A model generated the notes under the pieces. It was not told the origin of the DNA and did not search any database. It worked only from the letters and a program-made list of their open reading frames with translations. A program made the position numbers and the translations under genes. A stretch of DNA of 63,931 bases, filler included, from Dirinaria sp. TL-2023a (Eukaryota): assembly GCA_051941275.1 (NCBI GenBank). It is 57 parts of 57 records of this genome, joined end to end, with 100 filler letters (N's around TTAATTAATTAA, not from the genome) between each part and the next. Parts side by side here need not be neighbours in the genome. Positions count along the whole stretch, not along the records: positions 39,581 to 40,601 come from JAVEBF010003083.1; 56 more parts are not named here. One strand, 5' to 3'. Below are positions 1 to 63,910 of the stretch, piece after piece (position 1 is the stretch's first letter; every line of letters starts with the position of its first letter).

Positions 1-501
1 CGTCATCATAATACTGCGAAAGTCGAGCAAAAAAAACTACACAGATTTCTCAGCATATAAATCTATAGCTCTTCTCGACACACTGAGCAAGACACTAGAA
101 TTTATTATCTCGAAACGTCTACGCTACGTCGTCGAGAAACAAAGCACACTATCGAACACGCAGATGAGAATCAAAAAACATCGATCGATAAACACAGCAT
201 TACAGCTCATAACGAAAAAAATGCATACGATATGAAACGAAAACAAGAAACGTGTGACATCATTAATGAATCTGAACGTTTTCGAAGCATTCGATAACGT
301 ATCGCACGTTAGATTGCTTCACAATATGCGCAAACGAAAGATATCGACACGTCTGTTGACATGAGTGAAAGACTTTCTGAAGAAACGTCGAATCACACTG
401 ATTATTGACGATTACACGCAAACGAAACGTCAAGTGACAGTTGAAATATCTTAAAAATCTTCGCTCTCATCGATATTTTATCTGTTCTATAACGCAGATC
501 T
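1..501 (+). mobile_element. Decayed Tad1-like LINE reverse transcriptase fragment
   Basis: Frame 2 reads ILRKSSKKNY..AYKSIALLDTLSKTLE..EAFDNVSH..EIS*KSSLSSIFYLFYNADL, a mutated form of RKPGK..YRPIALL..GIPQGSPLSPILYLFYNADL. Confidence 0.9.
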
Positions 502-790
502 TGTCAGGATCTGCACAGCGCTCAATGGCATATGGATACAAATAGACTAGGACACTAACTATGAAGAAGAAAAGGAAAGGAAATCTATCTACAGGAAAAC
601 TCAAATAGGGGCCCGAAGTAATATCGGTCCGAGAACGCTAGGCCTGATAAGGCAAAATCAAACCACCTCTAACAAAACATCTGATATAGACCAAACCACA
701 TACCAAGGACCTTTCTTCAGGGTTCAGAGAGTCATGTGATCTGATCTAAGATGCTACAGATCTAGATTCATGACATTACCCCTCTTCTTC
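502..790 (-). mobile_element. LTR (family A, 502-775) with adjacent polypurine tract; 3' end of an LTR retrotransposon inserted into the LINE
   Basis: TGTCA..TGACA termini; reverse complement of 776-790 is GAAGAAGAGGGGTAA; shares ends with 11620-11866, 18702-18921 and 55424-55719. Confidence 0.8.
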
Positions 791-5709: not shown

Positions 5710-6749
5710 CCTCAAAACATGCTGCCCCTAGCGCCAACAACTCCCTCTACCTATGCGGCCGATATCTGGAGTGGGTGGGTGGGAAAGCGCTTTGCGATGC
5801 GAAAATCGAGTGCGATTTGATGTTGAAGCAGGCGATGGAGCAATGATGATAGCCAACTCAAGGTGAGGCCCATGATGACCTAAATACACACTGCCAAGCC
5901 AACTGCCAAAATCTCACTGCTCATGCTGCTAACCGAATTGAGATAGACCTTGACGATATGCGACATGCGCAAGTTGCTTTGAGAGTATTGCTTTGCAATC
6001 ATTGCTTGAAAATTCAATGCTTGAAAATCAATGCTTTGAAATCAACAAAGCATTGCTTAAAAATCAACAATATATTGATCTAGATGACAATGTCAGCAAC
6101 GCACTCGATAGACATCTAGACACTTTTCTCTAGCCCTGCTAGACACTGAAATGCTTTCGATGCCTCATGAGACTAGCAAATATAGACACAAACGAGTGAA
6201 CTGAATTTGAGTCTCGTCGGCGTCAGAGACGTTTATCTAACAAGCAAACAAACGAAAACACGATCTCAAAACATGCTGTCTCCAGCGTCAACAACTCCCA
6301 AACCTCAAGTACGTTGATCAAAAAGAATGAAGGACAACGTCTAACGAGAAACACGAAGAACTTAACAGCAAAGACGCGAGACAGCATGTTGTAGAAAACG
6401 TGTGCTGCAATGCTAGTCGACAAAAAGAAAACGCAAAATAACATTACGTCATCACGTTTTGAAATTTTCGCGAGGAGTTCAAAATTTGCTTCACATCGCG
6501 ATCAACATAAAGTCGATAGACATCGAATTTTCATCGATCTAAGATGCGGATTTCGTCATCAGGAAGGCTCCGCAAATGTGCCTTCGTTGCTGCACCTCGA
6601 CGAAAGAAATAATCAGAATAATCGTCATCGATGTCGCATATCAGTTTTTTCAAAATGACGACGATGTGTTGTCGCGAAAACGACAGTCGCGATAATTGAA
6701 AAAGCGACGCATCAGAGAGTGCAGAATGCATCTCAAACAGATATTTTAA
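5710..6749 (-). mobile_element. 3' end of an Ngaro/DIRS-type tyrosine-recombinase retrotransposon (YR C-terminus 6444-6749 plus split direct repeats)
   Basis: YSDYFFRRGAATKAHLRSLPDDEIRILDR*KFDVYRLYV, a mutated form of YSGHSFRRGAAT..LGRWKSDAYRLY; repeat at 5710-5745 duplicated at ~6263-6299; homologous to 18209-19240. Confidence 0.85.
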
Positions 6750-11619: not shown

Positions 11620-11866
11620 TGTCATGACCTGCACAGCGCTCATAGGTATATGAATACTACTAGACTAGGATACTAAGTATAAGGAAGAGAAGAAGGAAAA
11701 AATCAGAAGAAGCAGAAGTATAAGTACAGGAGGTGCAAGTAACAAATAGGGGGTCGGGTATGCGGGTAACACGCCTAGGAGGGTATAGTACAAAACCCCT
11801 TAATATCAGAGTCCTCAGGGTCCTCCAGGGTCTACACATAGGTGCTTCCAGGTCAGGTTCATGACA
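11620..11866 (-). mobile_element. LTR, family A
   Basis: TGTCATGA..TCATGACA termini; shared CTGCACAGCG and CCAGGTCAGGTTCATGACA ends. Confidence 0.85.
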
Positions 11867-12439
11867 GACGAAACGAAACCAATACGAATTGAAATCGATG
11901 CATCGAATCTAGTTATAGAAGTCTGTCTGTGTCAGGAGAAATAGAATAAATGACATTCAGTGACATACTTCTCGAGAAAATTGTTATCGACTGAACAAAA
12001 TTACGACATACACGATAAGAAGTTGCTAGCGATTGTAATATTCTTAGAAATCTGAAGAGTTTATGTTAAAGGAGCATCTGATCTCGAAATACTAACGAAT
12101 CATAAGAATCTGCTACATTTTACAACAACTAAGCAGCTAAACAGAAGACAGATCAGATGATCGAAACTTCTTGAATAATACAAGTTTATCATAAGATACA
12201 TCTCAGACAGAGAAAACGACAGAGCAGACGCATTAAATCGAAGAAACGAGTATATAAAGGAAAAGACAGAGTTCAATCACAGCATTTTAAAAATGAATTA
12301 GAATAAATCATTATCAGCAAACAGAGTATAGAAATTAAATGCGACACTGCGTATACTCAGAGACGATTAAGAGCAATATTCTATAGAGAAAAAGAAATTG
12401 CAAATATCAGCACACAAGATTGAAGATTGCATAAAGAAA
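11867..12439 (+). mobile_element. Decayed Ty3/Gypsy RNase H
   Basis: IEIDASN..TYFSRKL..EQNYDIHDKKLLAIV..LTNHKNL..LNRRQIR*. Confidence 0.92.
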
Positions 12440-18208: not shown

Positions 18209-19240
18209 GCGTGATAACGTAATGTCATTTTGCGTTTTCTTTTTGTCGACTAGCATTGCAGCACACGTTTTCTGCAACATGCTGTCTCGCGCTCTTGTTT
18301 CTGAGTCCTTCGTGTTTCTCGTCAAACGTTGTTTTTCATCCTCTTTGATCAACGTGCTTGAGATTTGAGAGTTGTTGACGCTAGAGACAGCATGTTTTGA
18401 GGTCGTGTTTTCGTTTGCTTGCTTGCTAGATAGACGTCTCTGACGTCGACGAGACTCAAATTCAGTTCACTCGTTTGTGTCTATATTTGCTAGTCCCATG
18501 AGGTATCGAAAGCACTTCAGTGTCTAGCAGGGCTAGAGAAAAGTGTCTAGATGTCTACCGAGTGCGTTGCTGACATTGTCATCTAGGTCAATGCATTGTT
18601 GATTTTTAAGCAATGCTTTGTTGATTTCAAAGCATTGATTTTCAAGCATTGAATTTCCAAGCAATGATTGTAAAGCAATGCTATCAAAGCAACTTGCGCA
18701 TTGTTATGAACCTGACCTGGAAGCCCTATTATAGGTCACGTGCTTGTGGTCACGTACTTGCGACTGGACCCTGAAGACCCCTATTACTAGGTGTTTACCC
18801 GACCGGGTCCCTACAAAACCAGGCACCCACCTCTGTATCTAGCCTTCTTCTTTTCTTCCTCATAGTTAGTGTCCTAGTCAAATAGTACCCACATGCTATG
18901 TTCGCTGTGCAGGCCCTGACACGCATATCGCATATCGTCAAGGCCTATCTCAATTCGATTAGCAGCATGAGCAGTGAGGTTTTGGCAGTTGACTTGACAG
19001 TGTGTATTTAGGTCATCATGGGCCTCATCTTGAGTTGATCATCAACATTGCTCCATCGCCTGCTTCAACATCAAATCGCACTCGATTTTCGCATCGCAAA
19101 GCGCTTTTTCACCCACCCACTCCAGATATCGGCCGCATAGGTAGAGGGAGTTGTTGACGCTAGAGGCAGCATGTTTTGAGGTCGTGTTTTCGTTTGCTTG
19201 CTTGCTAGATAGACGCCTCTGGCGCCGACGAGGCCCAAAT
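18209..19240 (+). mobile_element. Second copy of the Ngaro-like 3' end, with split direct repeats (from 18367 and from 19146)
   Basis: Reverse complement of ~5710-6455; ~95-bp repeat GAGTTGTTGACGCTAGAG..CAAAT present twice. Confidence 0.85.
18702..18921 (+). mobile_element. Solo LTR, family A, with TSD CGCAT
   Basis: TGTTA..TGACA; CGCAT at 18697-18701 and 18922-18926; empty site in the homologous copy near 5965. Confidence 0.92.
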
Positions 19241-19684: not shown

Positions 19685-20096
19685 TGTAACAGTGATACCT
19701 GATATATTGGTATATATTGACCAATGCAGGCTAGCGCCGCTTGGCAGCCGGGGGTGCCCAGGGGCAATCCTTCGGGGTCTGAAGCATGGCTAGCGCCGCC
19801 TAGAAGTCAGCGTCGGAAGGTTGAATCTCGAGGCTAACTAGAAACCAGTGAGCGGTTAACGCTTATAGAGCATTGTGTCTACGAGCGCTCGTGACCCGTC
19901 AGCGCGGGGCTCGTCATGGTGAGGCAATGTTAACGCTCGCGGTTAAGTATAGGGGACCACCCACCCTTTCGGAGGGGGTTCTTAGTGATTAGTTCTAGCA
20001 GAAACTACAGTATCAGGTAGTCATATAATCTATTACACTGTCACGTCTTTTACACAAGTACTGCGTCGGCGGGTAACCGGCGCATACGACCTTACA
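19685..20096 (+). mobile_element. LTR, family C (412 bp), lightly mutated copy
   Basis: TGTAA..TTACA; same-length copies at 33321, 40918 and 55736. Confidence 0.9.
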
Positions 20097-21262
20097 GACG
20101 TCAGCGTTTACAAATTGATCGAAGAGCCGTCATCTTAAAACAAAAAAAAAAAAAAAGCAAAAAGAGATGTGATGATGTTGATAATGCTGTTGATGAGCGC
20201 TGACTCGCAATCGACGTCAGCAACGCATCTCTTCTCACTCTCAAATTAAGACAAAACAATACTTATAGATGATGATTATGATGTTCTCAAAGAAGAACGC
20301 TGTTAATAAATCTAATATCAGTGCTTGAAGAGAAGTATTTATCAAAAATGCTTTAAGGACAGAGTAAAGAGNNNNNNNNNNNNNNNNNNNNNNNNNNNNN
20401 NNNNNNNNNNNNNNNTTAATTAATTAANNNNNNNNNNNNNNNNNNNNNNNNNNNNNNNNNNNNNNNNNNNNCACCATCCCAACGATCCAACCACAAAACA
20501 TCTGATTTTCAGAAATCCTCCCTCCTAACACTAGTATCCCTGATTAAATCCCCCACCGACGCGAGCGAGAAAGAGAAGACATTCTGAATCCCTCAAGTAA
20601 CATACTGATCCACGGATTCCGCACCTAGACGACGAGGAGGAGGAGGGGAGACAGGACATTATTGATCTGCTCAGGTGGCTGGGAGATGATGAGGCGCTCA
20701 TATATCATGTCTACTTGCTTGCTGCTTGATGGTTTTATATGTAGTCAGTCGCTTGCTTGCTCTTTTGGGATTTAGGATCTCGATCTCATCCCCTGATACG
20801 TACGTTCGTGGGGTGTGGAAACCCCACCTATCTGTTGTGTGAAAAGCACGGTTTTGGGAAATGGATAGTAATCTAATGGGTTGGGTGGCTTCTACTATTG
20901 GAAAGAGAGGAAGGTGGGCTACTGAGGGTGAGTGGGTCTTTGAGCGGATGGCACAGTTTAGGACGAGACGAAATCGAGGAGGGGAGGGCGGTTGTGTAGT
21001 GCTTCCTCCGTGGCGGGTGAGATTATCTCTGGACGAGTATCGGAGGGGAAGTGTATCTGAATTAGAGATTATTATTTTGATTACGGGGTTCTCACTATCG
21101 TGATATACTTGGAAGATCATGACTGATTTCCGCAGATCCTCGGCATCAAGGCCATCATCTGTTCGATTGCTGTAATGAATTGTAGTACTCCCGTCCTGGT
21201 GAAGAAGCTAAGTTAATGATAGACGCAACGCTATGTGATCTAGAAGTCTGATTTAAGACTCT

Positions 21263-23465: not shown

Positions 23466-23755
23466 TGTTACGACCCTGATCGAACATCTAGGGTTAGTGG
23501 AAGATTAGCCTTTATCAGTAAACTCTGAGTGTGATTAGTACTGATCAAGAGAACTTGACACTGAGCGATGCTCAGTTGATCAATAATGATCAGTACACTG
23601 AGCAACTTGTCATGAACCTGACCTGGGAGCACCAAGGTGTGGTCACGTGCCTGCCTTGGAGGACCCTTAGGACCCTGGAGGACCCTGATATTTGTTTACC
23701 CGCATACCCGACCCCCTATTTGTTGCTTGCACCTTCTGTATCTATACTTCTTCTT
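23466..23755 (+). mobile_element. Nested LTR fragments (unknown LTR from 23466; family A from 23608)
   Basis: TGTTACGACCC start, then TGTCATGAACCTGACCTGG matching family A. Confidence 0.7.
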
Positions 23756-32849: not shown

Positions 32850-33872
32850 TTGAGAACAAAATCGCGAATGTATTACTCTGTTTTATGCAGTTGATTTTGT
32901 CGATCTCGATTTGATTTTAAGCATGCTCATGCTTGCAAGTCAGAGTATTCTGTTAAATCTAGAGACAGCAAATTGACGATTCAAAATTATTTTTGAAAAA
33001 TTCGAAATCTCTGAACTCGTCAATTTTGTCATAGATCTGACGAGATAACAGCGAGTGTATGCATTGATTTGCGTCGATGTAACGACGACGACAAGTCAAT
33101 CAAAATCGAAACTTTCAATTCTTAAAAAGTTATTGAAGTTTCGAGATCAATTTGATAACGAGAAAATCGAGATTCTGTCTGAACAAGATCAGAAAGATCA
33201 TATCATTGATTTAATGAAGAGTCGAGAATTACTCTTTATGTCTTTATACAATCTTTCTCAGATCGAGCTGACTGAGTTGCGACGTTATCTAGAGAACGCT
33301 TTAAAAAAGAGCTGAATTCGTGTAACAGTGATACCTGATACATTGATATATATTGACCAATGCAGACTAGCGCCGCTTGGTAGTCGGGGGTGTTCAGAGG
33401 CAATCCTTCGGGGTCTGAAGCATGGCTAGCGCCGCCTAGAAGCCAGCGTCGAAAGATTGAATCCCGAGACTAACTAGAAGTCAGTGAGCGATTGACGCTT
33501 ATAGAGCATTGTGCCTACGAGCGCTCGTGATTCGTCAGCGCGGGGCTCGTCATGATGGGGCAATATTAACGCTCGCGGTTAAGTATAGAGGACCACCCAC
33601 CCTTTCGAAGGGGGTCCTTAGTGATTAGTTCTAGCAGGAACTACAGTATGAGGTAGCCATATAATCTATTACACTGCCACGTCTTTCACACAAGTACTGC
33701 GTCGGCGGGTAACCGACGCATACGATTTTACAATTCGTCATTTCGTTTCGTCAGCAGAAGCTTCGATTTTTTTTGTATTTAAAAAAGATGAAGAATTACG
33801 ATTATGTGTAGATTACAGAGAGCTAAACGCGATTACAATCAAAAATCGTCATTTTTTATCTCTTATAACGAA
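32850..33872 (+). mobile_element. Decayed Ty3/Gypsy protease-RT, interrupted by a solo LTR
   Basis: [51 protein letters not shown]. Confidence 0.92.
33321..33732 (+). mobile_element. Solo LTR, family C (412 bp), with TSD ATTCG
   Basis: ATTCG on both sides; removing the LTR and one TSD restores the RT frame. Confidence 0.93.
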
Positions 33873-39480: not shown

Positions 39481-39580
39481 NNNNNNNNNNNNNNNNNNNN
39501 NNNNNNNNNNNNNNNNNNNNNNNNTTAATTAATTAANNNNNNNNNNNNNNNNNNNNNNNNNNNNNNNNNNNNNNNNNNNN

Positions 39581-40016
39581 ATAGGCACCAAGTCCTTTGA
39601 CTTGGTTTAGTTAGTCTTTTGGCGCTGCCGGGACTTTTACCATTGGGAAACCTATCTAACCAAGGTTGGGTCTTTGACATTAAACCAAGTCAACACGGTC
39701 GCAAGGTTCTGAGTTCGATTCCCAGCCCGGACGTTTGAAGGGTTTTCGGGTTTTCGGCGAGGCTTTACGGCTGAGAGTTTACTAAACTCGGGGCGACTAC
39801 TTAACCGTTTCCACTAAGGCGAACCTCCTATCACACTCTGAGCGCTGAGCTTCGGGACGAAGCTCAGAGAGGGACCCGGATAGTGTTACGACCCTGGAAA
39901 ACAAAACCAAGTAGTAAGATAGGCACCAAGTCCTTTGACTTGGTTAGTTAGTCTTTTGGCGCTGCCGGGACTTTTACCATTGAGAAACCTATCTAACCAA
40001 GGTTGGGTCTTTGACA
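39581..40016 (+). mobile_element. TRIM-like miniature LTR element, copy 1 (5' LTR truncated, ends 39679; 204-bp internal; 3' LTR 39884-40016)
   Basis: Direct repeats TGTTACG..TTTGACA around a non-coding interior; PBS-position 13-mer complementary to the LTR; purine-rich tract before the 3' LTR. Confidence 0.88.
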
Positions 40017-40917: not shown

Positions 40918-41329
40918 TGTAACAGTGATATCTGATACATTGATATATACTGATCAATGCAGACTAGCGTCGCTTGACAGTCGAGAGTGTTCAGAGACAA
41001 TTCTTCGAGATCTGAAGCATGACTAGCGCCGTTTAGAAGTCAGCGTCGAAAGATTGAATCTCGAGACTAATTAGAAGTCAGTGAGCGATTGACGCTTATA
41101 GAGCATTGTGTCTACGAGCGCTCGTGACTCGTCAGCGCGGAGCTCGTCATGATAAAGTAATGTTAACGCTCGCGATTAAGTATAGAGGATCACTCATTCT
41201 TTCGAAGAGGGTCCTTAGTGATTAGTTCTAGCAGAAACTGCAGTATCAGGTAGTTATATAATCTATTACACTGCCACGTCTTTCACACAAGTACTGCGTC
41301 GGCGGGTAATCGACGCATACGACCTTACA
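40918..41329 (+). mobile_element. LTR, family C (412 bp), heavily mutated copy
   Basis: Colinear with 19685-20096; differs mostly by CC>TC and GG>GA. Confidence 0.9.
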
Positions 41330-41507: not shown

Positions 41508-41720
41508 TGTTACGAGCATGCACCTAGGTATACTACCTGGGGCAATATCTCTCATGGTTCTCAGGGGTAATACGCTAACCTGATCGGGGTACGCGACACC
41601 CGCACGCGTATATATCTGGGACCCCCATTGTATCTAGCTTCTCTTCTTCTTCTTTCCTTCCTTAGTGATAATATCTTAGTTAACTATACCTGCATTGACT
41701 TGCTCTGCACCGGTCCTAAC
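41508..41720. mobile_element. LTR, family D
   Basis: TGTTACG..CCTAAC at contig end; reverse-complement partial copy at 61615-61721. Confidence 0.75.
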
Positions 41721-42938: not shown

Positions 42939-43955
42939 TGAATCGAAGAAAGAAGACGAGTTTGAAGTCGAAAAAATTCTGAAGTAGCGAGGTCAGAAAT
43001 ATCTAGTTAAGTGAAGAGAGTGATCTATAGAAAACAACACGTGAGAATCAGCTAGAAATCTTTAGAACTGCGAAGAGAAACTTCGAAAGTTTCATCGAAA
43101 GCAGAAGAGTTCTGCAAAAACTCGTACATCGCTTGAGAGTTTCAAACAGAGAAAGATTTCGAAGACATCGTGAAAAGCTCTTGTTTCACTTGATATTCTT
43201 TTCACTCTATCTTCAAAATATTCTTGAATTCGATATCGCTCAGATCTTTCAGACGACGAAGTTAGTACTTTCGCTATTTTTTCTAACGAGCAAGCTTCAA
43301 ACGAGTTTTGAGAATTTTCTCATTCAATTTCTCAGCATTTTTTATCGTCTTGTTTATACTCTCATAATTCGAAGTTAAGTCGCACTTTCAATTCTTTCGA
43401 TAGCACTTCTCACACTTGAGATACTGACGATTGATCTTGCAAAGAACGTCAAAGAAGATACAGCATTGACAGAGACGCATCGTGAAGTACTCAGAGCGAT
43501 AGCGACGATCAGCAGTTTAATTACGACGATGAATTGTGAAATTGCGAAGAGACATATTGAAAGAAGAAGAGTTTTCGAGACGAAAATCTAAAAGAGAGAG
43601 AATAATGTTACGAGCCGATGCTACGCTAACTAAGAAATGAACAATATTCTTATAAGCGATAATCTAAGATATGAAAACTTACAGATTCAAGCAGAAGATT
43701 CTTCTTGACACTTGAACACATCGTCACGTAAGATTCAAGCAGTTCAAGCATCGACATTGCTTAAATATCTTGAATCGCTAGCGTCATAGAGTAGTATATA
43801 GAAACTCAATACGACGCTCTTTGTCACGAATTTACAACCCAACATCGTGTTAGAGATCTAGGGGTTTAACATCTATATCACTAGTGCCTATATATGAGAT
43901 CTTCAGATATCTATAGTATCTTTCTCCCTCATGTCTGGTATTCTCGTACATAGTC
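42939..43955 (+). mobile_element. Chromovirus 3' end: chromodomain, PPT (~43590-43605), 3' LTR from 43606, with a probable nested LTR from 43822
   Basis: EFEVEKILK*RGQKYLVK*RE*SIENNT*ESARNL; AAAAGAGAGAGAATAA directly before TGTTACG. Confidence 0.88.
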
Positions 43956-49687: not shown

Positions 49688-50196
49688 TGTTACGATCCTG
49701 GAACATAAGTAATAAGATAGGCACCAAGTCTCCGACTTGGTTTAGTTAGTCTTTTGACGATGTCGGGACTTTTATCATTGGAAAACCTATCTAACCAAGA
49801 TTGAGTCTTTGACATTAAATCAAGTCAACACGATCGCAAGATTCTGAGTTCGAATTTCAGCTCGAACGCTTGAAGAGTTGTTTTTCGGCGAGGTCTGTCG
49901 ACTGAGAGTTTATCTAAACTCAGAGCGACTACTTGTTTTGATAAACGTATATTAATTTCTGAGCGTCATGAGTCACTCTGATTAGCTAGCATTCTCTACA
50001 GAGTCTTGAATCTTCTCACTTCTCTCAACGCTAGCTTCGAGACGAAACTAAGCCGAGGGATCGAGATAATGTTACGATCCTGGAACATAAGTAGTAAGAT
50101 AGACACCAAGTCTCCGACTTGGTTTAGTTAGTCTTTTGGCGGTGCCGGGACTTTTACCATTGGGAAACCTATCTAACCAAGGTTGGATCTTTGACA
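49688..50196 (+). mobile_element. TRIM-like miniature LTR element, complete copy (127-bp LTRs at 49688-49814 and 50070-50196; 255-bp internal)
   Basis: Two direct TG..CA repeats; interior homologous to copy 1 at both ends; no matching TSD. Confidence 0.9.
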
Positions 50197-52960: not shown

Positions 52961-53159
52961 AAACAACCCTTCAAGCGTCCGGGCGGAATCGAACTCAGAA
53001 CTTTGCGACCGGGTTGACTTGGTTTAATGTCAAAGACCCAACCTTGGTTAGATAGGTTTCCCAATGGTAAAAGTCCCGGCAGCGCCAAAAGACTAACTAA
53101 ACCAAGTCAAAGGACTTGGTGCCTATCTTACTACTTGGTTAGTTTCCAGGGTCGTAACA
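52961..53159 (-). mobile_element. TRIM copy 3 (5' LTR 53028-53159 plus start of the internal region)
   Basis: Reverse complement matches the LTR, TTAAACCAAGTCAA and GAGTTCGATTCC. Confidence 0.9.
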
Positions 53160-54184
53160 CAAATTATTTTCTCTCGAATTTCGTGACTGAAAGATTGTTA
53201 AACAGAGATGAACAATTCTACGATACTCATTTCGCTAACTTCACGACGAAAAAAAAACTACGAATTTTTAGAACAAATAAAAGACGAGTGATCAAATGAT
53301 ATTTTCGTGATTTCTGATATTATGTTATCAAGAATGAATACGCATTCGTGAGAAACGAGAGAGTACAAGCAGAGTTGAAGATCAAAGACAGTCAAGAGAA
53401 TAGAATAAAATGCGTGATACAAGATGACTCGAGTTCGTCACGCAAATCAAAATCACTGTTATCTCAATCACATTCGAGATCGCAATCTCTGTCGTTGAAA
53501 TTCTCTCTATCGCTTTTATCGAGATCGCAATCTCTGTCGTTGAAACTCTCTCTGTCGTCTTCATCGAGATCAAAGACTTCTACAACGAAGAAAAAAAGAG
53601 CAAGATATATCAAAATTTGAGAGTGATCAGATTTATCAGACATCGAGAAAAGAGCTGCATCTATCACAATACAATCAGAAAAAATGTCTACGCTTTCAAA
53701 TAAAAATGCGTCTAAATCGTCGACTGTGTCGTTTAACTTTACTTTTACGTCGTTTAAGACTCAGAAATCGCGAACATATGACTCGATGAATCTGAACTCG
53801 AATGAAAATATCTCGAATGATCAAGAATCATTCAAACATGCACTGAAGAATGAACAGCTCAGAGAGAGTCAGATATTCTCAACTTCACTTCAACATGAAT
53901 CAGATTTCGACGAGAAATCTCGCAAGCTCTCGATTTTCGAATCAACTCTGAAGAAGTTACTAGATGAAAANNNNNNNNNNNNNNNNNNNNNNNNNNNNNN
54001 NNNNNNNNNNNNNNTTAATTAATTAANNNNNNNNNNNNNNNNNNNNNNNNNNNNNNNNNNNNNNNNNNNNGGGGGGTGTAATCAGGAAGGGGGGGTGTGT
54101 GCTTAGCGGGCGCCTTCTTATTGATGACCTTAATAGCCGTAGCGAAAGCTCTATAATATTTCGAATGGGAGTCAATAACCAGTT

Positions 54185-55179: not shown

Positions 55180-56147
55180 ATAGGGGTCTGGTTCATGACA
55201 GATCTAATTCTACATCTCTTACATCTAGTCGCAGAAATCAGCGAATTTCTGCGTTAAATTGTAGATTTTAATCTATTTGTTATGTTAATAAGGAGTTCCT
55301 TATAGAATTTACGGACTAGCTAGGTTATGTGATAATGTGCAATAGTATAGGAAACAAAGAGTCTATTACTATCAAGATTAATTACTGAGAAACTCAAATC
55401 TTCGAGATGAGAATGATCTCTTTTGTCATGAACCAGACCCCTATGAGCCTGATCACATAACTAGGTCACATGATTTCATAGACCCTGAACCCTGAAGTAG
55501 AGCCTCTGAATATCACATGTGTGTGAAAAGATCTATATCAAGTGTTTTGTTAGAGATGTTGTGTTTTTATCTAATCAGATTTAATGTTCTCGAATCGATG
55601 TTGTTTCGATCTCATATTTAAATCTATCTGTATTTAGATTTTTTTTCTTTTCTTTTTCATAGATAGTATTTTAGTTTATTTGTACTCATATGTCATTGAG
55701 CGCTGTGCAGACTCTGATATTACACTATTTATCACTGTAACAGTAATACCTGATACATTGGTATATATTGACCAATGCAGGCTAGCGCCGCTTGGCAGCC
55801 GAGGGTGCCCAGGGACAATCCTTCGGGGTCTGAAGCATGGCTAGCGCCGCCTAGGAGCCAGCGTCGGAAGATTGAATCCCGAGGCTAACTAGAAGTCAGT
55901 GAGCGGTTGACGCTTATAGAGCATTGTGTCTACGAGCGCTCGTGATCCGCCAGCGCGAGGCTCGTCATGGTGAGGCAATATTAACGCTCGCGATTAAGTA
56001 TAGAGAATCACTCACCCTTTCGAAGAGGGTCCTTAGTGATTAGTTCTAGCAGGAACTACAGTATCAGATAGTCATATAATCTATTACACTGTCACGTCTT
56101 TCACACAAGTACTGCGTGGACGGGTAATCGACGCATACGATCTTACA
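55180..56147. mobile_element. LTR cluster: family A end (55180-55200), family B partial (55278-55423), family A (55424-55719), family C (55736-56147, 412 bp)
   Basis: Each segment matches other copies in this window. Confidence 0.85.
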
Positions 56148-56288
56148 GTTCTAATCACTTCAATCTTTTGAAGAGAAAGGCCCGAAGTNNNNNNNNNNNN
56201 NNNNNNNNNNNNNNNNNNNNNNNNNNNNNNNNTTAATTAATTAANNNNNNNNNNNNNNNNNNNNNNNNNNNNNNNNNNNNNNNNNNNN

Positions 56289-61503: not shown

Positions 61504-61721
61504 TGTTACGATCCTGGAACATAAGTAGTAAGATAGGCATCAAGTTCTTTGACTTGATTTAGTTAGTCTTTTGGTCATGCCGGGACTTTTATCATTGAGA
61601 AATCTATCTAATCATGTTAGGACCGGTGCAGAGCAAGTCAATGCAGGTATAGTTAACTAAGATATTATCACTAAGGAAGGAAAGAAGAATAAAAGAAGCT
61701 AGATACAATGGGGGTCCCAGA
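61504..61721 (+). mobile_element. TRIM-family LTR (61504-61614) interrupted by a family-D LTR
   Basis: Matches the LTR starting at 50070; switches at 61615 to the reverse complement of the 41720 end. Confidence 0.85.
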
Positions 61722-62703: not shown

Positions 62704-62827
62704 TGTTACGACCCTGAAAACAAAACCGAGTAGTAAGATAGGCACCAAGTCCCTTGACTTGGTTTAGTTAGTCTTTTGGCGCTGCCGGGACTTTTACCAT
62801 TGAGAAACCTATCTAACCAAGGTTGGG
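62704..62827 (+). mobile_element. TRIM-family LTR, truncated by contig end
   Basis: Nearly identical to the LTR starting at 39884. Confidence 0.9.
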
Positions 62828-63085: not shown

Positions 63086-63910
63086 CTAGGACTGGTAAGC
63101 TAAAATCAATCCCTCGTACGCCCTTAGGTCAAGTTCCTCGCCTGTTCTGTAATGACCTCCCCCACATCGACTTCCCTTCTTCTCTCTCGAACGTTGCATT
63201 ACTGTATAGTCCACACGTTGTCCATCAGCGCTGGTTGGTAGCCTGAATGAGACATCATTCTGCTTGGTCAAGTTTAACACAGTGAGCATGTTGTCTGCTG
63301 CTCTTCCCTCGTTAGCTATCGCTGTACGATGGTATGCGAATACTGTTCCATTATCCAACGACACAGGCTCAAAGTCTCCGAACACTAGCGTTTCTGGATG
63401 TGCTCGCCGAAATGAGAGCATCCGCTTCCAGAAGTTCAGGACTGAATCTGAGACCCTTTCCTGATCGGCCACATTGCAGACAGCCGTGTCAGTGTTCATG
63501 CGTGTCCATGGTTGTGTGCCGTCTCTGGCATCTGAGAAGCCAGCATGAGGCTTCGCAGAATCCCACGGCATGGGCATACGGCCGTGATCCCGAGCCTTGA
63601 GCCGTACTTGGTCTGCTACTTCTTGCACAATCTCGCCCATCTCGATCGCTCTCCCCGGCTCTGCTGCTTGACGAAGTCGATGCATGTCTCCCAAGAAGGC
63701 TTTGGTTTCGATGTCCATGTATTCATCGATTGGAATGTCTTTGGCAAGGTTGGCCATGCCTATCTCCTGGCCTTGATGCAGAAATAACGTCCCGCCTAAC
63801 GTAGTTTGCAATATAGCGAGTAGCTTGGCGACTTCAAATCTTGTGGTTGTACTTCCATCTCCAAATCTACTGACTGATCGTGCGGCATCGTGTGATTCTA
63901 GGAAGACGGT
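63086..63910 (-). CDS. GH13 alpha-glucosidase/maltase, C-terminal part
   Basis: FLESHDAARSVSRFG, GTLFLHQGQEIGMAN, KARDHGRMPMPW and SVLNFWKRML motifs. Confidence 0.95.
   Translation of the reverse strand, partial: TVFLESHDAARSVSRFGDGSTTTRFEVAKLLAILQTTLGGTLFLHQGQEIGMANLAKDIPIDEYMDIETKAFLGDMHRLRQAAEPGRAIEMGEIVQEVADQVRLKARDHGRMPMPWDSAKPHAGFSDARDGTQPWTRMNTDTAVCNVADQERVSDSVLNFWKRMLSFRRAHPETLVFGDFEPVSLDNGTVFAYHRTAIANEGRAADNMLTVLNLTKQNDVSFRLPTSADGQRVDYTVMQRSREKKGSRCGGGHYRTGEELDLRAYEGLILAYQS

Follow-up and report, generated by a model that had tools for sequence, protein, structure and literature searches.

The DNA analysed here, a stretch of 63,931 nucleotides from the Dirinaria sp. TL-2023a assembly GCA_051941275.1 (the window), contains a family of miniature, non-coding LTR elements that resemble TRIMs and are, judging from sequence and predicted RNA structure, most likely self-primed in the way of Tf1. 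One base past the 5' LTR lies a site that is the exact complement of a segment of the same LTR, and in models of the RNA the two pair and enclose a stem-loop of U5. Being non-coding, the family must rely for its movement on proteins that an autonomous Ty3/gypsy element supplies in trans.

The window is made up of 57 contigs of 1004-1043 bp each, ordered by size; between them stand linkers of 100 bases, with N on both sides of TTAATTAATTAA. The linker with TTAATTAATTAA was found 56 times at regular spacing (0.01 expected in the window), and the one at 39481-39580 runs up to position 39580, directly before the copy studied here. Since the window is a chain of small contigs, contigs lying side by side need not be neighbours in the genome and features at contig starts are truncated; positions 39581, 52961 and 42939 are therefore contig starts and not element ends. 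For the same reason, five copies in 64 kb are a sample of small repeat contigs and not a local cluster. Other contents of the window comprise a fragment of a GH13 glycosidase at 63089-63910, whose nearest relatives were Dothideomycete proteins (718 hits among 3345 candidates; top match Vermiconidia calcicola, 68% identity), and diverged tandem units of ~130 bp in contig 49 (54181-55079) which are 77-90% alike. Contig 17 carries a direct repeat of 93 bp (18369-18461 and 19148-19240, 93.5% alike, 779 bp apart), which was also found in contig 6, with the region 5710-6456 listed alongside, and may represent another short terminal-repeat element.

The earlier note had described an element of ~0.5 kb with LTRs of 127-133 bp and no ORF, and all of these features were present. 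BLAST also recovered the five copies it had reported, but two of the coordinates given for them, 39581 and 52961, are contig starts. The copies, named after their contigs, are as follows.

39581-39679, plus strand: 5' LTR of c36, truncated (LTR positions 36-134), a direct repeat with 39919-40016
39884-40016, plus strand: complete 3' LTR of c36, 133 bp, TGTTACG...TTTGACA, defined by sequence, BLAST and alignment
49688-50196, plus strand: c45, complete and older, with LTRs at 49688-49814 and 50070-50196 and the primer site at 49816-49828
52961-53160, minus strand: c48, truncated where its contig ends; complete 5' LTR from 53159 to 53028, primer site from 53026 to 53014
61504-61614, plus strand: LTR fragment of c55, broken at 61614 where another LTR adjoins
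62704-62827, plus strand: LTR of c56, cut by the contig end

A full LTR has 127-133 bp and reads TGTTACG...TTTGACA, and the whole element amounts to ~470-510 bp: c45 has 509 bp with LTRs of 127 bp, c36 has 436 bp plus 35 missing bases with an LTR of 133 bp. BLAST and alignment with the other copies placed the true LTR start at the equivalent of 35 bases upstream of 39581, and the 5' LTR of c36 lacks its first 35 bases because the contig start cuts it. Behind its full 5' LTR, c48 keeps the first 66 internal bases. The longest stop-to-stop frames were 53 codons in the copy at 39581 and 49 codons in the copy at 49688, the longest frames started by ATG 33 and 41 codons (c36 and c45). Between the two LTRs of c36 (39581-39679 and 39919-40016) 97 of 99 aligned columns were identical, and c36, c48 and c56 were 95-98% alike, which indicates fairly recent movement. 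The LTRs of c45 were identical at 117 of 127 positions and all 10 differences were transitions. A 5-bp target-site duplication could be assessed in c45 only, since the other copies are cut by contig ends, and was absent from this old, sole complete copy (TAAAT versus ATTGT). The flanks of c36, c45, c48 and c56 were all different. By eye, c36 lies within a Ty3/gypsy-like pol remnant; the pol fragment gave 0 hits among 122 candidates and matched no Pfam family. The LTR fragment of c55 sits within the integrase/chromodomain region of a chromovirus on the minus strand, and an LTR-like unit of ~214 bp, TGTTACGAGC...GGTCCTAACA, adjoins its broken end; this unit was found on opposite strands at 41508-41720 and 61615-61721 with 98% identity. 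We also tried the element in the opposite orientation and dropped this reading, because the sequence preceding the other LTR would then not be purine-rich.

The interior is organised in the same way in the copies that retain it. The following features were read on the plus strand of c36.

39697-39733, plus strand: weak motif like a tRNA 3' half, followed by T runs, read from the sequence
39775-39789, plus strand: near-perfect palindrome GAGTTTA-C-TAAACTC, read from the sequence and conserved in c45
39845-39867, plus strand: stem-loop of 10 bp, CTGAGCTTCG-GGA-CGAAGCTCAG, just 5' of the polypurine stretch, read from the sequence
39866-39883, plus strand: purine-rich stretch AGAGAGGGA...GGATAG adjoining the 3' LTR, the presumed plus-strand primer

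The interiors of c36 and c45 have ~125 bases in common on the left and ~50 on the right, and the two blocks stop at identical positions in both copies. The middle differs, with 32 nt in c36 versus 87 nt in c45 and, in a copy from a public sequencing run (X2, see below), 84 other letters replacing 54. Common internal ends together with differing flanks show that the unit moved as a whole. The stretch before the 3' LTR is purine-rich yet interrupted (AGAGAGGGACCCGGATAG in c36, GAGGGATCGAGATAA in c45). The stem-loop at 39845-39867 also formed in the fold of the presumed full-length RNA, and a related stem exists in c45. Beside the primer site, a block like the sense-strand 3' half of a pre-tRNA, with T runs, spans 39697-39760 in c36 and 49832-49890 in c45; its first part (39697-39733) consists of a GNRA-capped stem (GCAA loop), a T-arm-like CTGAG-TTCGATT-CCCAG and CCCGGAC-G. 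The reading of 39697-39733 as tRNA-like gained no support: ARAGORN found 0 genes in the window, Rfam returned no tRNA match at E values up to 10 in searches with 1 kb or 106 bases, and a simple T-arm pattern is common in the window (27 versus 11 expected). A cloverleaf across the LTR end and the primer site, drawn by eye, was dropped on the same ARAGORN, Rfam and T-arm-frequency grounds.

Around the LTR end, four features on the plus strand are of importance for priming.

39587-39606, plus strand: LTR hairpin ACCAAGTC-CTTT-GACTTGGT at the proposed U3/R border, predicted to fold with -10.5 kcal/mol
39597-39609, plus strand: proposed self-primer TTGACTTGGTTTA at the putative start of R, defined by complementarity and paired in every fold
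39630-39674, plus strand: predicted U5 stem-loop inside the duplex of primer and primer site, from folds of c36 and c45 and the consensus of c36, c45 and c48
39681-39693, plus strand: primer binding site TAAACCAAGTCAA, one base past the LTR end (39679), defined by complementarity and conservation

The complementarity between 39681-39693 and 39597-39609 was described before as perfect, and indeed all 13 nt are complementary (100%). The same holds for c48, where the site (53014-53026, minus strand) is identical and the 13-nt pair is perfect. The site of c45 carries a single C>T change, and its LTR segment starts with CC instead of TT; the pairing amounts to 11 bp including one G-U, with the first two primer bases unpaired. 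We also confirmed that no TGG follows the LTR in c36, c45 and c48, which rules out a site of the tRNA 3'-end type only. How often such a match arises by chance was determined by shuffling the 20 nt after the LTR in 5000 trials. The 13 nt of c48 were reached in 1 of 5000 shuffles. For c36 compared with its own 3' LTR, which has a deletion of 1 nt, the match is 11 nt and was likewise reached in 1 of 5000, while the perfect Watson-Crick run of c45 is just 6 nt, reached in 2241 of 5000 shuffles and thus ordinary. As a control, four LTR-end junctions of an unrelated family in the window gave 6, 5, 7 and 7 nt, which is chance level.

An RNA of c36 starting at 39597 was predicted to fold with its 5' end on the site in 15-16 contiguous base pairs, and this pairing encloses a small hairpin and the longer U5 stem-loop. 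c45 and c48 fold alike, and the consensus fold of c36, c45 and c48 gave the same 34 pairs, albeit from three sequences only. The whole-fold energies are unremarkable, with z values from -0.5 to -2.9 (among them -1.7 and -2.9). Both the position of the site and the predicted folds are as expected for self-priming of the Tf1 type, in line with the self-pairing geometry proposed before. Six changes in the stems of c45 all keep the pairs: in two pairs both partners have changed, in two others a single partner. These changes were not counted as evidence for selection, because a mutation bias of the repeats can explain them: C-to-T changes among repeat copies fall mostly on C before C (GG to GA if the opposite strand is read), and in a stem of CC and GG the two target bases pair together, so that the bias can mimic covariation. 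The bias was counted in the LTR copies of the element and in the repeats at 19685-20097, 33321-33736, 40918-41329 and 55736-56151. The CpC context accounted for 36 of 51 changes but for 227 of 1033 site-copies, with 15-17% changed per site-copy versus 0-6% elsewhere, and CpG sites changed in 1 of 242. Repeat-induced point mutation usually acts in the CpA context, and the CpC bias differs from it. RIPCAL describes CpC as a possible yet non-dominant form (PMC2621366).

The LTR segment proposed as the primer can also pair locally, and the earlier note saw in this a possible on/off switch. The local hairpin itself is well founded: it formed in all four LTRs that were folded (c36, c45, c55 and c56) with -6.6 to -10.5 kcal/mol, its arms are conserved in an alignment of seven LTRs, and the core of its 5' arm is the core of the primer site. 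The switch did not hold up in the models, as the minimum-energy folds paired the LTR segment with the site even when the 5' arm of the hairpin was included. When the presumed full-length RNA was folded, the segment lay on the primer site with its 5' copy and in the hairpin with its 3' copy, as the earlier note had pictured; here, the 3' copy would adopt the hairpin only because the primer site is already occupied. Since the long-range pairing wins with the 5' arm present, the hairpin is a fallback in these models and not a lock. A paired change in the hairpin of c55 fits the CpC/GpG mutation bias. That the hairpin nevertheless acts as a switch on top of self-priming, with the 3' copy of the primer locked and the 5' copy alone free, is unlikely in our view; its presence in four of four LTRs and the position of the 3' copy in the full-length fold speak for it, but the success of the long-range pairing and the bias behind the c55 change speak against it. 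We regard as very unlikely a still richer variant, in which a minimal natural self-primer of ~0.47 kb, reduced to the cis signals that priming of the Tf1 type requires, would combine the hairpin as a decoy for the 3' primer copy with a captured piece of a pre-tRNA that has a role of its own; such a piece would serve, for example, in binding of polymerase III factors or in RNA handling.

The comparison did not bear out the proposal that the element is a parasite of the chromoviruses at 42939 and 61120. The chromovirus fragments are real, but the LTR or primer site of the element is shared by none and only the termini recur. The contig at 42939 (c39, 42939-43955) is the 3' end of a chromovirus and begins with a chromodomain (Pfam Chromo, E 3.6e-7, 30.4 bits at a cut-off of 25.1, with stops read as X). 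This chromodomain carries stop codons at positions where chromodomains have tryptophan. The coding part is followed by a polypurine stretch AAAAGAGAGAGAATAA and, at 43606, by the LTR start TGTTACGAGCC with TATA-like runs; c39 has in common with the element just the first 8 bases of the LTR (TGTTACGA) and a similar polypurine end. The integrase SH3-like domain of c55 scored 23-24 bits, under the cut-off of 30. The c55 fragment had 15 relatives among 122 candidates, the best of which carry SH3_Tf2-1 and Chromo, and one relative of 976 residues contains reverse transcriptase, RNase H and integrase in addition. For the c55 chromovirus (61120), no LTR was identified.

The terminal motif itself is widespread: TGTTACGA was counted 13 times in the window (1.9 expected) and opens several LTR families. 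One larger family begins with TGTTACGACCCTG (contig 21), 13 bases identical to the start of the miniature element, and ends in ...GGTCATGACA or a variant of it (contigs 11, 17, 1 and 50), which resembles GGTCTTTGACA. The same start and a similar end indicate that the element shares its integrase-facing termini with larger families. Members of the larger family, with the TGTTACGACCCTG start and an end of the type ...CTGTGCAGG(N)C(N)TGACA, were seen at 23466-23755, 11620-11870 (minus strand) and 18700-18920 as well as at about 500-700 (minus strand) and 55530-55722; what lies past their ends varies from contig to contig, which is what solo or 3' LTRs should show. No autonomous Gypsy element that has this LTR body or primer site was found in any contig of the window, and when the element was compared with all remaining contigs by BLAST at low stringency, nothing beyond chance emerged.

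Related copies were found in three public sequencing runs (X1 to X3), each with 5-6% of the sampled words; regions that are uncovered in these runs carry no meaning. X2 contains a contig of 391 nt that runs from LTR through primer site and interior to the 3' LTR, and contigs of X3 span 39796-39899 and 39884-40016. X1, an RNA library, yielded a contig of 189 nt over 39607-39753 with 2 differences; it starts at 39607 and not at 39597, a position which is no measure of the transcript end, since such contigs do not reveal where an RNA begins or ends and may stem from library DNA. X1 and X2 have the primer site without any change, and the 3' LTR of X2 has the full 13-nt segment. Because the same junctions occur in independent public assemblies, the structure is not an artefact of the assembly analysed here. 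In one public contig two LTRs are only ~11 nt apart. A contig of 151 nt from X2 (39648-39681) joins the element's LTR end via ~11 other bases to an LTR start of the larger-family type, TGTTACGACCCTGGATCGA. Metagenome contigs scanned with the junction of LTR end and primer site, and then with the conserved LTR block, gave nothing.

For priming, we propose the following sequence of events. The LTR segment TTGACTTGGTTTA, the putative start of R, would fold back on the site one base past the 5' LTR and enclose the U5 stem-loop. RNase H of the partner element would then cut at the end of the duplex, and from the 3' end released in this way the minus strand would be synthesised through U5 and R. In this model the transcription start, the cleavage, the priming itself and the identity of the helper are inferred. 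In the scheme for Tf1 it is the RNase H cut that sets the 3' end of the primer (PMC7175516). If this applies here, a start near 39597 would not be strictly required, and a start somewhat upstream of 39597 would be compatible with self-priming.

Two other readings accept the anatomy of the element and give the complementarity a different meaning. The TRIM could take its primer from the host in the form of an RNA that is not the 3' end of a tRNA, such as an internal part or a half of a tRNA or another small RNA, with the self-match as a structural stem only. Primer sites for half-tRNAs do exist in other LTR elements (PMC6317226) and TRIMs of bivalves are also without a canonical site, with no mechanism assigned to them in the excerpt of PMC6934838. 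Still, we consider a host-RNA primer quite unlikely, as ARAGORN found no tRNA gene in the window, Rfam nothing resembling a tRNA in the region on either strand, and a self-match of 13-15 bp lies exactly at the primer position. The complementarity could also be a relic, or structural in nature and serve in packaging, dimerisation or as a palindrome at the level of the DNA, with the copies as dead remnants. The age of c45 with its 10 transitions in 127 LTR bases and its lack of a target-site duplication fit this view, as do the weak z-scores of the folds; moreover, the repetition of the primer-site core in the 5' arm of the hairpin could reflect a duplication. Against it, the similarity of the c36 LTRs (97/99) and of c36, c48 and c56 (95-98%) argues for fairly recent movement, the element is present in an RNA library, and the match adjoins the LTR end, where priming must start. 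On balance, a relic is unlikely.

That there is no such family at all, and that the short copies are independent internal deletions or LTR-LTR recombinants of a long element or artefacts of an assembly with contigs of 1 kb, is highly improbable. The differing middle of the interiors would be in accordance with it (32 versus 87 nt, and 84 for 54 in X2), as would the public contig with two LTRs ~11 nt apart and the size of ~1 kb of all contigs here. However, the internal blocks of c36 and c45 end at the same positions, the interior of the c36 type recurs in two other runs, and the flanks differ. The objection that the short interiors might be unique deletion derivatives was thus checked, and the architecture was found to be common to c36 and c45 and to recur in public contigs. 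Self-priming of a TRIM-like element remains the reading that we prefer.

Self-priming was shown for Tf1 and proposed for many chromoviruses of fungi and vertebrates (PMC7175516, PMC4600332, PMC6934838, PMC6317226, PMC2864245), such as Tj1, Tcn1, Maggy, Skippy, Cft-1, Boty, Grasshopper and Afut1 (PMC4600332, PMC7175516, PMC6934838); it is also predicted for 12% of plant LTR elements (PMC7175516, PMC4600332, PMC6934838, PMC6317226, PMC2864245). Like Tf1 and Tf2 of Schizosaccharomyces pombe and the Tf1/sushi group, the element described here is without a tRNA-type site. As in that group, the site past the 5' LTR complements a segment of the LTR, with a predicted U5 stem-loop in between (PMC7175516, PMC4600332, PMC6934838), and chromovirus fragments occur in the same set of contigs as the element. 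Unlike Tf1, it has a size of ~0.5 kb with LTRs of 127-133 bp, is without gag and pol, and has a hairpin at the proposed U3/R border in which the primer-site core occurs a second time. Its complement measures 13 nt versus 11 in the Tf1 type, and here priming is deduced from sequence and a predicted fold.

TRIMs are defined as non-coding elements of less than 1 kb whose terminal direct repeats measure 100-250 bp and whose primer site complements a tRNA (PMC6934838). Like TRIMs of plants, ants, cestodes, bivalves and fungi, the element is smaller than 1 kb and non-coding, has terminal repeats and occurs at several loci; the stretch before its 3' repeat is purine-rich but interrupted. It departs from the definition in that its primer site complements its own LTR and not a tRNA (PMC6934838). 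TRIMs were annotated in fungi without an analysis of priming (PMC4112212); in PMC3248453, searched for fungal TRIMs, "trim" occurs only within the software name TrimAl. The excerpt of PMC6934838 contains no claim of a self-priming TRIM or non-autonomous element, and the titles in a targeted literature search suggest none.

If the T-arm-like motif were derived from a tRNA, the element would resemble Cassandra in being a TRIM with a module of the polymerase III type. Cassandra elements are plant TRIMs which carry 5S sequences in their LTRs. Unlike in Cassandra, the motif found here is internal and not in the LTR, and it is statistically unsupported.

In sum, the element looks like a TRIM, lacks the tRNA site that defines TRIMs and probably works like a self-primer of the Tf1 type. 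This is a modest extension of known biology and not a new mechanism. The understanding of LTR elements is unchanged, since inheritance of the helper's cis signals is what one expects of a non-autonomous element. Such elements will be overlooked or misclassified by annotation pipelines that search for primer sites of the tRNA type. If self-priming is true, self-priming chromoviruses have miniature parasites, and the element would be a naturally pared-down set of RNA signals that helps to define the minimal substrate for the RNase H cut.
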